Below, piece after piece: positions 7,946 to 9,622 of a stretch of 13,144 nucleotides of DNA. The stretch is from a virus. Lineage: Duplodnaviria; Heunggongvirae; Uroviricota; Caudoviricetes. The stretch is from the IMG/VR virus record IMGVR_UViG_2541047722_000003. One strand, written 5' to 3'. Position 1 is the stretch's first letter; each line of letters starts with the position of its first letter. Made by a program: the position numbers and the translations under genes. Below the pieces are notes generated by a model. That model had not been told where the DNA came from. It searched no databases and worked only from the letters and a program-made list of their open reading frames with translations.

Positions 7946-7947
7946 GT

Positions 7948-8190
7948 TTATGCTCCGGTGGTGAACAGGTCTAACGCTTCCTTCGATTTACGCACCGCTT
8001 CGATAGTGCGGGTCGTGATATCTGAATTAGCGCCGCCTGACTGGAAGTGAATTTTGAATAGCTCAAGCTTCAGTTCGTCAGTGCCAATGAACTGAAATGC
8101 TTCCTCTGCGGCTGCGTTCTGGTTCATGACCAGCTTGTAAATCTCTAACTGGAATTTCTGTTCTTCAGTCATGGGAATAATCTCTGCCAT
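7948..8190 (-). CDS. Hypothetical phage protein (80 aa) upstream of terS
   Basis: ORF with a GGAG Shine-Dalgarno 8 nt upstream of the ATG at 8190-8188, tightly packed against terS. No recognisable motif. Confidence 0.5.
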   Translation of the reverse strand: MAEIIPMTEEQKFQLEIYKLVMNQNAAAEEAFQFIGTDELKLELFKIHFQSGGANSDITTRTIEAVRKSKEALDLFTTGA

Positions 8191-8225
8191 TGTTGGCTCC
8201 GTTTATCCGTTAAAAGGGATATCAG

Positions 8226-8229
8226 TTAA
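8226..8229. repeat. IS5 target-site duplication, left copy (TTAA)
   Basis: TTAA at 8226-8229 and at 9425-9428 directly flank the 16-bp IS5 terminal inverted repeats. Fits the known YTAR target preference. Confidence 0.75.
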
Positions 8230-9424
8230 GGAAGGTGCGAATAAGTGGGGAAATTCTTCTCGGCTGACTCAGTCATTTCATTTCTTCATGTTTGAGCCGA
8301 TTTTTTCTCCCGTAAATGCCTTGAATCAGCCTATTTAGACCGTTTCTTCGCCATTTAAGGCGTTATCCCCAGTTTTTAGTGAGATCTCTCCCACTGACGT
8401 ATCATTTGGTCCGCCCGAAACAGGTTGGCCAGCGTGAATAACATCGCCAGTTGGTTATCGTTTTTCAGCAACCCCTTGTATCTGGCTTTCACGAAGCCGA
8501 ACTGTCGCTTGATGATGCGAAATGGGTGCTCCACCTTGGCCCGGATGCTGGCTTTCATGTATTCGATGTTGATGGCCGTTTTGTTCTTGCGTGGATGCTG
8601 TTTCAAGGTTCTTACCTTGCCGGGGCGCTCGGCGATCAGCCAGTCCACATCCACCTCGGCCAGCTCCTCGCGCTGTGGCGCCCCTTGGTAGCCGGCATCG
8701 GCTGAGACAAATTGCTCCTCTCCATGCAGCAGATTACCCAGCTGATTGAGGTCATGCTCGTTGGCCGCGGTGGTGACTAGGCTGTGGGTCAGGCCACTCT
8801 TGGCATCGACACCAATGTGGGCCTTCATGCCAAAGTGCCACTGATTGCCTTTCTTGGTCTGATGCATCTCCGGATCGCGTTGCTGCTCTTTGTTCTTGGT
8901 CGAGCTGGGTGCCTCAATGATGGTGGCATCGACCAAGGTGCCTTGAGTCATCATGACGCCTGCTTCGGCCAGCCAGCGATTGATGGTCTTGAACAATTGG
9001 CGGGCCAGTTGATGCTGCTCCAGCAGGTGGCGGAAATTCATGATGGTGGTGCGGTCCGGCAAGGCGCTATCCAGGGATAACCGGGCAAACAGACGCATGG
9101 AGGCGATTTCGTACAGAGCATCTTCCATCGCGCCATCGCTCAGGTTGTACCAATGCTGCATGCAGTGAATGCGTAGCATGGTTTCCAGCGGATAAGGTCG
9201 CCGGCCATTACCAGCCTTGGGGTAAAACGGCTCGATGACTTCCACCATGTTTTGCCATGGCAGAATCTGCTCCATGCGGGACAAGAAAATCTCTTTTCTG
9301 GTCTGACGGCGCTTACTGCTGAATTCACTGTCGGCGAAGGTAAGTTGATGACTCATGATGAACCCTGTTCCATGGCTCCAGATGACAAACATGATCTCAT
9401 ATCAGGGACTTGTTCGCACCTTCC
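8230..9424 (-). mobile_element. Complete IS5 insertion sequence, 1195 bp
   Basis: 16-bp terminal inverted repeats GGAAGGTGCGAATAAG (8230-8245) and CTTGTTCGCACCTTCC (9409-9424). Length is exactly 1195 bp. Encodes an InsH-type transposase. Flanked by a 4-bp TTAA duplication. Confidence 0.95.
8376..9356 (-). CDS. insH: IS5 transposase InsH
   Basis: 326-aa reading frame starting [35 protein letters not shown]..., matching IS5 InsH as recalled. The tracked ORF extends 12 codons further upstream (to 9392). Confidence 0.93.
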
Positions 9425-9428
9425 TTAA
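9425..9428. repeat. IS5 target-site duplication, right copy (TTAA)
   Basis: See left copy. Confidence 0.75.
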
Positions 9429-9445
9429 CTGTGAATAATCCATTG

Positions 9446-9622
9446 TCATTTCCTCGCACGATGTCTTAGCAACCGGATATCCCACAGGTGAGCCGTGTAG
9501 TTGAAGGTTTTTACGTCAGATTCTTTTGGGATTGGCTTGCGTTTATTTCTGGTGCGTTTCGTTGGAAGGTATTTGCAGTTTTCGCAGATGATGTCGGTGA
9601 TACTTCGTCGCTGTCGCCTCAT
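9446..9622 (-). CDS. Small basic protein (58 aa), possibly NinE-like
   Basis: ATG at 9622-9620 overlaps the ninB stop (ATGA coupling) and is preceded by an AGGAGG Shine-Dalgarno. Very basic, with a single CxxC (CENC). Tentative NinE-like assignment rests only on size, position after ninB and vague sequence recollection. Confidence 0.55.

Follow-up and report, generated by a model that had tools for sequence, protein, structure and literature searches.

A CUS-3-like prophage of Escherichia coli HVH 59 lacking its ninX-to-rha block, probably through an IS5-mediated deletion

Introduction

The closest described relatives of the DNA studied here are phage CUS-3 and the prophages of the extraintestinal Escherichia coli strains FY26, NCTC11151, APEC O1, S88 and RS218, with which it shares its gene order. 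Outside insertion sequences, it shares 99.4% nucleotide identity with CUS-3 and as much as 100% with the CUS-3-like prophages. A further point of reference is phage Kapi1, which has been isolated and characterised as a temperate phage (PMC8787464).

Two other bodies of work are relevant. The first concerns deletions mediated by insertion sequences in E. coli. IS5 duplicates a YTAR target, of which TTAA is the commonest tetramer in E. coli, and a genome of this species contains about 37,000 YTAR sites (PMC5009759). Mutation-accumulation lines yielded 98 IS-mediated deletions; IS5A produced 52 of these, and in 73.5% of the total an old copy was joined to a new nearby copy (PMC5009759). IS5 is also known to hop locally, with 19 new insertions less than 1 kb from an old copy against 1.5 expected (PMC5009759). 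The second concerns the cryptic, or "grounded", lambdoid prophages DLP12, Rac and Qin of K-12, which carry deletions and insertion sequences, reside in the chromosome and are non-inducible and non-lytic (PMC6379469).

Results and Discussion

Identity of the prophage and its gene order

The window, a stretch of 13,144 bp, comes from scaffold KE699353.1 of the draft assembly GCA_000456885.1 of E. coli HVH 59 (4-1119338). It ends on both sides at N-gaps (N-runs of 1400 and 1195), each lying inside a copy of IS629. Judged from its sequence, the window is part of a CUS-3-type P22-like prophage (Lederbergvirus). The match to CUS-3 covers 70% of the window, and the identity outside insertion sequences reaches 100% for the prophages of E. 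coli FY26 and NCTC11151. Protein families were assigned through Pfam, PHROGs and PDB matches, together with precomputed Pfam hits for the source contig. Syntenic morphogenetic genes of P22 type are present together with a lambdoid early-right region, with matches to the P22 coat and portal, Terminase_3, NinB, NinE and a DnaB-type helicase (Pfam).

The phage genes are all encoded on the minus strand, so that the phage sense runs from high to low coordinates. In this sense the order begins with gene O (cut by the IS629 end at 13043), the DnaB-type helicase, several small ORFs and ninB, and continues with ninE, IS5, DUF2560/hkbM, terS, terL (split by IS629), portal, scaffold and coat. The genes that define the region of interest are as follows.

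10938-12314, minus strand: DnaB-type helicase (Pfam)
9619-10029, minus strand: ninB, intact, the last of the early-right genes located well upstream of the breakpoint (PF05772, E 4.6e-53; 100% identical in FY26)
9446-9622, minus strand: ninE, intact, 58 aa (PF05322, E 2.7e-42, positions 1-58 of 58)
7948-8190, minus strand: DUF2560/hkbM, intact, 80 aa (PF10834, E 1.1e-43)
7505-7945, minus strand: terS, intact, 146 aa (phrog_309, terminase small subunit, E 2e-68; CUS-3 annotation)

The two small ORFs beside IS5, which a sequence-only reading of this DNA had left unnamed at 58 and 80 aa and had proposed for homology searches, thus prove to be NinE and a DUF2560 protein. The FY26 homologue of the former is annotated as a NinE family protein, and the name hkbM for the latter follows the CUS-3 annotation. 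The C-terminal 38 aa of TerS match the gene 1 protein of Sf6 (E 5e-11).

The block missing between ninE and hkbM

Alignment to FY26 locus L001 gave three segments with zero mismatches. Window positions 93-5438 correspond to L001 501-5846 (5346 bp), positions 6749-8230 to L001 5843-7324 (1482 bp), and positions 9424-13042 to L001 12847-16465 (3619 bp). The stretch of FY26 that is absent from the window is L001 7324-12847, exactly 5,524 bp, corresponding to about 562,622-568,145 of FY26 record NZ_CP101741.1. In FY26 and CUS-3 this block contains, up to Q, the genes ninX, ninF, roi, DUF1364 (hkbD), rusA, ninH and Q, followed by the holin S, the GH24 lysozyme R, Rz/Rz1, a 50-aa ORF and rha. Here roi encodes a KilAC antirepressor, and its loss accompanies that of the rest of the block. 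The Q-to-holin interval, in which lambdoid phages place both the late promoter and the Q-utilisation site, has been lost as well. A homologous block with minor differences in content occupies the same place in E10, MS20654 and phage Kapi1.

The sequence-only reading had described the order ninB, 58-aa ORF, IS5, 80-aa ORF, terS, with only about 56 bp between the two small ORFs once IS5 is set aside. The coordinates bear this out, since 39 bp (8191-8229) plus 17 bp (9429-9445) of phage sequence, or 56 bp, separate the stop of ninE from the start of hkbM. It had also suspected that the remaining nin genes, the late antiterminator Q and the holin, endolysin and Rz genes were missing from this interval, with IS5 at the junction. 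This was correct, as FY26, E10, MS20654, CUS-3 and Kapi1 carry these genes exactly there, and the synteny comparison that it had recommended with intact relatives, including CUS-3, places a block of about 5.5 kb in the relatives that is absent from the window. Between ninB and terS in the window, we found no match to Q, holin, endolysin or spanin. The absence of the block is not due to chance.

Two small membrane ORFs upstream of ninB (10041-10232 and 10659-10865) were considered as a displaced holin. Both occur also in relatives that possess their own lambda-family holin, and the candidates were rejected; neither has a Pfam match, and 10659-10865 belongs to phrog_1165, a family of unknown function.

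A viable P22-like lineage in which ninE is naturally followed by hkbM and terS, with the late regulator and lysis genes encoded elsewhere, would display the same gene order as the window. We found no point in its favor. The flanks are 100% identical to those of prophages that have the block in place, and the breakpoint cuts ninX after codon 8. The standard order was observed in every sampled context. The identical DUF2560 protein is preceded in 10 of 10 distinct contexts by a holin, a lysin, a spanin-type lysis gene and 1-3 further ORFs (Rha- or KilA-N-type in most of them), and the identical NinE is followed in 6 of 6 contexts by NinX and NinF, onward to Q. The two flanks are joined in no phage record. 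More broadly, none of the phages and genomes searched has ninE joined to DUF2560/terS and lysis genes located elsewhere, the arrangement whose presence in lytically competent close relatives the sequence-only reading had named as counter-evidence. In addition, terL and gene O of the window are also broken by IS629. A natural arrangement is therefore exceedingly improbable and, in our judgment, effectively refuted already.

IS5 and the two breakpoints

The element at the junction is a complete IS5 whose transposase gene is co-oriented with the late genes of the phage.

8230-9424, minus strand: IS5, complete, 1195 bp (terminal repeats, transposase, identity to K-12 IS5)
8376-9392, minus strand: IS5 transposase (DDE_Tnp_1, PF01609, E 1.9e-35, plus DUF772, PF05598)

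Its 16-bp ends read GGAAGGTGCGAATAAG and GGAAGGTGCGAACAAG, and these inverted repeats agree at 15 of 16 positions. The copy is 99.67% identical to K-12 IS5 across 1195 bp, and its matches in E. coli genomes carry the annotation "IS5-like element IS5 family transposase". A TTAA tetranucleotide flanks the element on each side (8226-8229 and 9425-9428), and both fit the YTAR motif. Six other IS5 copies were inspected for comparison. All 12 of their flanks fit YTAR, and five of the six copies have matching flanks, the remaining one being flanked by TTAG and TTAA. The six copies revealed no extended target motif beyond YTAR, within a small sample picked for similarity to the flanks in the window.

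The phage sequences that adjoin the element are the following.

9425-9449, minus strand: ninX remnant of 8 codons, right deletion breakpoint; ends in the right-hand TTAA and matches the N-terminus of FY26 NinX
8191-8229, minus strand: final 39 bp of the rha-hkbM spacer, left breakpoint; ends in the left-hand TTAA and is 100% identical in FY26

On the right side, the loss extends over ninX codons 9-141, and the first 8 codons remain. The remnant sequence ATGACAATGGATTATTCACAGTTAA encodes MTMDYSQL, after which the reading frame enters IS5 and then meets a stop codon. On the left side, the breakpoint lies 36 bp upstream of hkbM.

The intact relatives reveal the origin of the two tetranucleotides. 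Their native left site reads GATATCAG-TTAA-GTTATCCC (in longer form GGGATATCAG-TTAA-GTTATCCC), with the TTAA at L001 7320-7323, and their native right site reads AAATCAC-TTAA-CTGTGAAT (in longer form AAAATCAC-TTAA-CTGTGAAT), with the TTAA at L001 12848-12851. Both TTAAs, separated by 5.5 kb, are conserved in all four relatives checked (FY26, CUS-3, E10 and MS20654). The ends of IS5 abut L001 7323 and L001 12848 exactly, and both flanks are collinear with the ancestor and in ancestral orientation. IS5 thus coincides precisely with both ends of the deletion, a position that points to the element itself as the cause. The sequence-only reading had taken the intact TTAA "duplication" as a sign of a simple insertion unrelated to the deletion. 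This interpretation does not hold, because the intact relatives already have a TTAA at each of the two breakpoints, and the pair need not be a target-site duplication. Moreover, random YTAR pairs in this phage present the same tetramer 37% of the time, so that the matching TTAA flanks carry almost no weight.

Proposed IS5-mediated deletion

We propose that the window is a portion of a CUS-3-like prophage that most likely lost 5,524 bp through an IS5-mediated deletion. In this process, IS5 would first have entered one of the two TTAA sites, the one in ninX codon 8 or the one that lies 36 bp upstream of hkbM. A second, equally oriented copy may then have arisen by a local hop into the other TTAA, after which homologous recombination between the direct copies would have removed the intervening DNA together with one IS5. 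Alternatively, a single intramolecular transposition into the second TTAA could have generated the same product in one step. Either route predicts a left flank-TTAA-IS5-TTAA-right flank structure, as observed. The causal role of IS5 and the order of these events are what we infer from the structure of the junction.

The proposed event resembles the IS5- and IS1-mediated deletions described in E. coli by Lee et al. (2016), in which one IS copy lies exactly at the junction, the joined sequences were a few kb apart in the ancestor, and the YTAR flanks are native to their own sites (PMC5009759). The kb-scale size of the deletion also fits the short-interval pattern of IS-mediated deletions (PMC5009759). 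Unlike the deletions of Lee et al., the present one was not observed as it happened, no two-copy intermediate of it was found, and its flanks happen to be the same tetramer. In contrast, each of the three IS629 copies of the window, described below, inserted cleanly, with a 3-4 bp duplication and without DNA loss.

The same final sequence would equally be produced by a microhomology deletion followed by IS5 insertion, and causation is unprovable from the sequence alone. According to this alternative, an IS-independent deletion would have occurred between short direct repeats (A-ATCA-N-TTAA), and IS5 would later have duplicated the single TTAA that was left. The flanks are indeed a perfect 4-bp match. 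The breakpoints agree at 5 of 7 bases upstream of TTAA (ATATCAG vs AAATCAC), or at 9 of 11 when TTAA is counted; among TTAA pairs drawn at random from this phage, only about 2.6% are as similar on either side. This upstream similarity slightly favors a microhomology origin. Long deletions that do not involve insertion sequences also occur in E. coli, at a rate of about 2.2e-5 per genome per generation (PMC5009759). However, the alternative requires a 5.5-kb deletion over an imperfect 9-of-11 repeat, after which IS5 must have struck one particular tetranucleotide among the genome's YTAR sites (~37,000).

The search for an IS5-free allele bears on the same question. The query consisted of 302 bp in which the two flanks are fused through one TTAA, the IS5-free junction reading GGGATATCAGTTAACTGTGAATAATCC. 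No such allele was detected in 5,426 complete E. coli genomes, in which the best single match covered 53% of the query, or in 50,697 phage records searched at relaxed sensitivity (best single match again 53%), although such absence is not proof. We roughly estimate that an IS5-mediated origin is favored over a deletion preceding IS5 by a few hundred to one, and the latter appears very improbable.

Integrity of the assembly and fate of the block

Both IS5/phage junctions were read directly, with no gap; the linkage of the two flanks through a single IS5 copy depends on the draft assembly. In HVH 59, an intact 5.5-kb nin-Q-lysis block might lie between IS5 copies at the two TTAAs, and a short-read assembler may have joined the outer flanks through one IS5, leaving the block on another scaffold. 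The draft nature of the scaffold is compatible with such a collapse, as is the presence of N-gaps (1400 and 1195) in two other IS copies a few kb away. The layout with two IS5 copies predicts a NinX that starts at Met23 (119 aa), and precisely this 119-aa NinX occurs on 15 public contigs, the longest of 669 kb, which may or may not derive from HVH 59. Truncated NinX calls can, however, also arise from other disruptions, and IS5 together with both junctions was read without gaps. Furthermore, IS5 is found at neither site in any of the 5,426 complete E. coli genomes. A scaffolding error of this kind would need read pairs that link flanks really about 8 kb apart. We therefore regard an assembly collapse as unlikely.

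Two related scenarios concern the fate of the block. It may have been bracketed by two IS5 copies and persisted as a composite cassette, or moved. Alternatively, the deletion may have been selected as a domestication that shed host-killing functions while keeping immunity. Positive support for either comes from the Met23-truncated NinX on those 15 contigs and from nothing beyond it, and we consider these scenarios quite unlikely.

The search for intermediates yielded none, which is a point against the proposed IS5-mediated deletion. A query consisting of IS5 and both flanks revealed no IS5 adjoining either flank in the 5,426 complete E. coli genomes, and the 50,697 phage records likewise contained no such junction. 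An intermediate with IS5 at one site and the block retained was likewise absent from the 5,426 complete genomes and the sampled protein contexts. An exact search of genome contigs with a 30-mer spanning the left IS5 junction returned 0 matches, a result that is uninformative since the collection holds one genome per species. The IS5-type element near ninE in ET650 (H61) was considered as an intermediate and rejected, because it is ISKpn26, located at a ninF/DUF1364 site in a different lambdoid prophage.

We also considered whether IS5 drives the expression of hkbM-terS. A promoter scan of 7900-9700 gave no sigma-70-like site, and a terminator scan of the same region gave a single terminator-like site, which is weak and located on the plus strand. 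These scans lend no support to IS5-driven expression.

IS629 insertions and the state of the prophage

Three IS629 copies interrupt the prophage in addition to IS5.

5439-6748, plus strand: IS629 in terL, 1310 bp, with a CTTT duplication
1-92, plus strand: end of a second IS629 at the start of gp4, with a CCC 3-bp duplication; the window starts at an N-gap inside it
13043-13144, minus strand: end of a third IS629, inverted, in gene O, with a CAG 3-bp duplication; an N-gap within it closes the window

The first copy divides terL into two halves, 6749-7508 and 4779-5438. An IS3-family element of E10 matches it at 100% identity, and its matches in Stx phages are annotated as IS629. The IS5 and the three IS629 copies lie at sites where none of the CUS-3-group relatives compared has them, and the window further differs from this group by the lack of the 5,524 bp from ninX to rha.

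The loss of Q, the Q-to-holin interval and the lysis genes, combined with IS629 in O, in terL and at the start of gp4, indicates that the prophage is defective. From its gene content, it would be incapable of replication from O, Q-dependent late transcription, packaging and lysis. Most of the structural genes persist, as does the immunity region, and gene calls for the repressor, cro and cII remain on the source contig. Over about 10.4 kb there are zero point differences from FY26, from which it follows that all four insertion-sequence events are recent.

In carrying a probable IS-mediated deletion as well as IS insertions, the prophage is similar to DLP12, Rac and Qin of K-12. In contrast to these, it is very young, as reflected in the absence of any point difference from an intact relative across 10.4 kb. 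It stands at an early point of the decay from which the K-12 cryptic lambdoid prophages arose.

Conclusions

As read here, the case is an ordinary one, namely a textbook IS-mediated deletion and prophage decay via insertion sequences, with nothing novel in kind, and its importance beyond correct annotation is small. For annotation, the prophage should be labelled defective, with no Q, no lysis genes, and terL, O and gp4 disrupted. The locus also calls for caution in interpreting insertion-sequence flanks. Equal 4-bp flanks around IS5 are not proof of a simple insertion, because the short YTAR motif recurs at both ends of IS-mediated deletions. For the CUS-3 group, the prophage of HVH 59 provides a clean and very young example of prophage decay driven by insertion sequences.

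Results and Discussion

At the 5,524-bp deletion, nine of 11 bases are common to both breakpoints (ATATCAGTTAA and AAATCACTTAA), which lie as follows:

8219-8229: breakpoint 11-mer in the window, equivalent to 7313-7323 of the intact prophage locus of E. coli FY26
9418-9428: breakpoint 11-mer in its ancestor-equivalent form, corresponding to 12841-12851 of the same FY26 locus

Of random TTAA pairs within this phage, 2.6% show equally strong similarity in the adjoining bases. The 9/11 match may reflect chance, microhomology or a wider, as yet unrecognized IS5 target preference. 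The NinX product predicted from Met23 (119 aa) corresponds to the truncated protein expected from IS5 insertion at codon 8 of ninX, and it is matched exactly on 15 public contigs (NCBI, Logan, ENA), the longest of 669 kb.

Two further E. coli loci carry IS5-family elements. In strain PI24, an IS5 copy within NZ_CP074012.1 1070287-1071625 is flanked discordantly, by TTAG at one end and TTAA at the other. It is an independent case of IS5 lying between two unlike target sites, the outcome expected of an IS-mediated rearrangement. In strain ET650 (NZ_CP100936.1), a different lambdoid prophage carries the IS5-family element ISKpn26 in its nin region (locus coordinates 5865-7282), with ninF on one side of the element and a truncated DUF1364 gene on the other; a fragment of an EAL-domain gene adjoins it. 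This site appears to be a further case of IS-associated rearrangement within a nin region. Just past the same prophage there is a type I Zorya system.

The terminase gene terL is split by a 1310-bp IS629 with a CTTT duplication:

5439-6748: IS629
6749-7508 and 4779-5438: the two terL halves

A 306-aa ORF (6588-7508) begins as the TerL N-terminus and continues into IS629 sequence; this read-through ORF has been deposited as EQP17964.1 and was found on one contig of the protein collection.

Two further IS629 copies lie at the window ends, and within them the draft scaffold has gaps of 1400 and 1195 N:

1-92 and 13043-13144: IS629 end segments in the window
2014-3413 and 16558-17752: N-gaps on the source-scaffold locus L006 (reverse complement)

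The window termini are assembly gaps and not biological boundaries. The prophage extends past both of them: gp4 and gp10 lie beyond one end, and the N-terminal part of O together with cII, cro and the repressor beyond the other.

An apparent frameshift affects one small gene:

10229-10646, minus strand: two overlapping ORFs of 60 and 104 aa

These look like a single frameshifted phiTE_015-family gene. The 60-aa ORF has an N-terminus with CxxC...CxC, and the match of the 104-aa ORF to phrog_343 is confined to positions 53-125 of the 135 in that family. A 138-aa form is called in another genome (locus L028, 1978-2394). PGAP labels the gene 'frameshifted' in FY26 and E10, and the otherwise intact relatives share the frameshift.

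The FY26 prophage aligns to the window without a single mismatch over ~10.4 kb (window 93-5438, 6749-8230 and 9424-13042), and NCTC11151 is likewise 100% identical. The window bears four IS events despite this identity; all disruptions of the HVH 59 prophage must be very recent.
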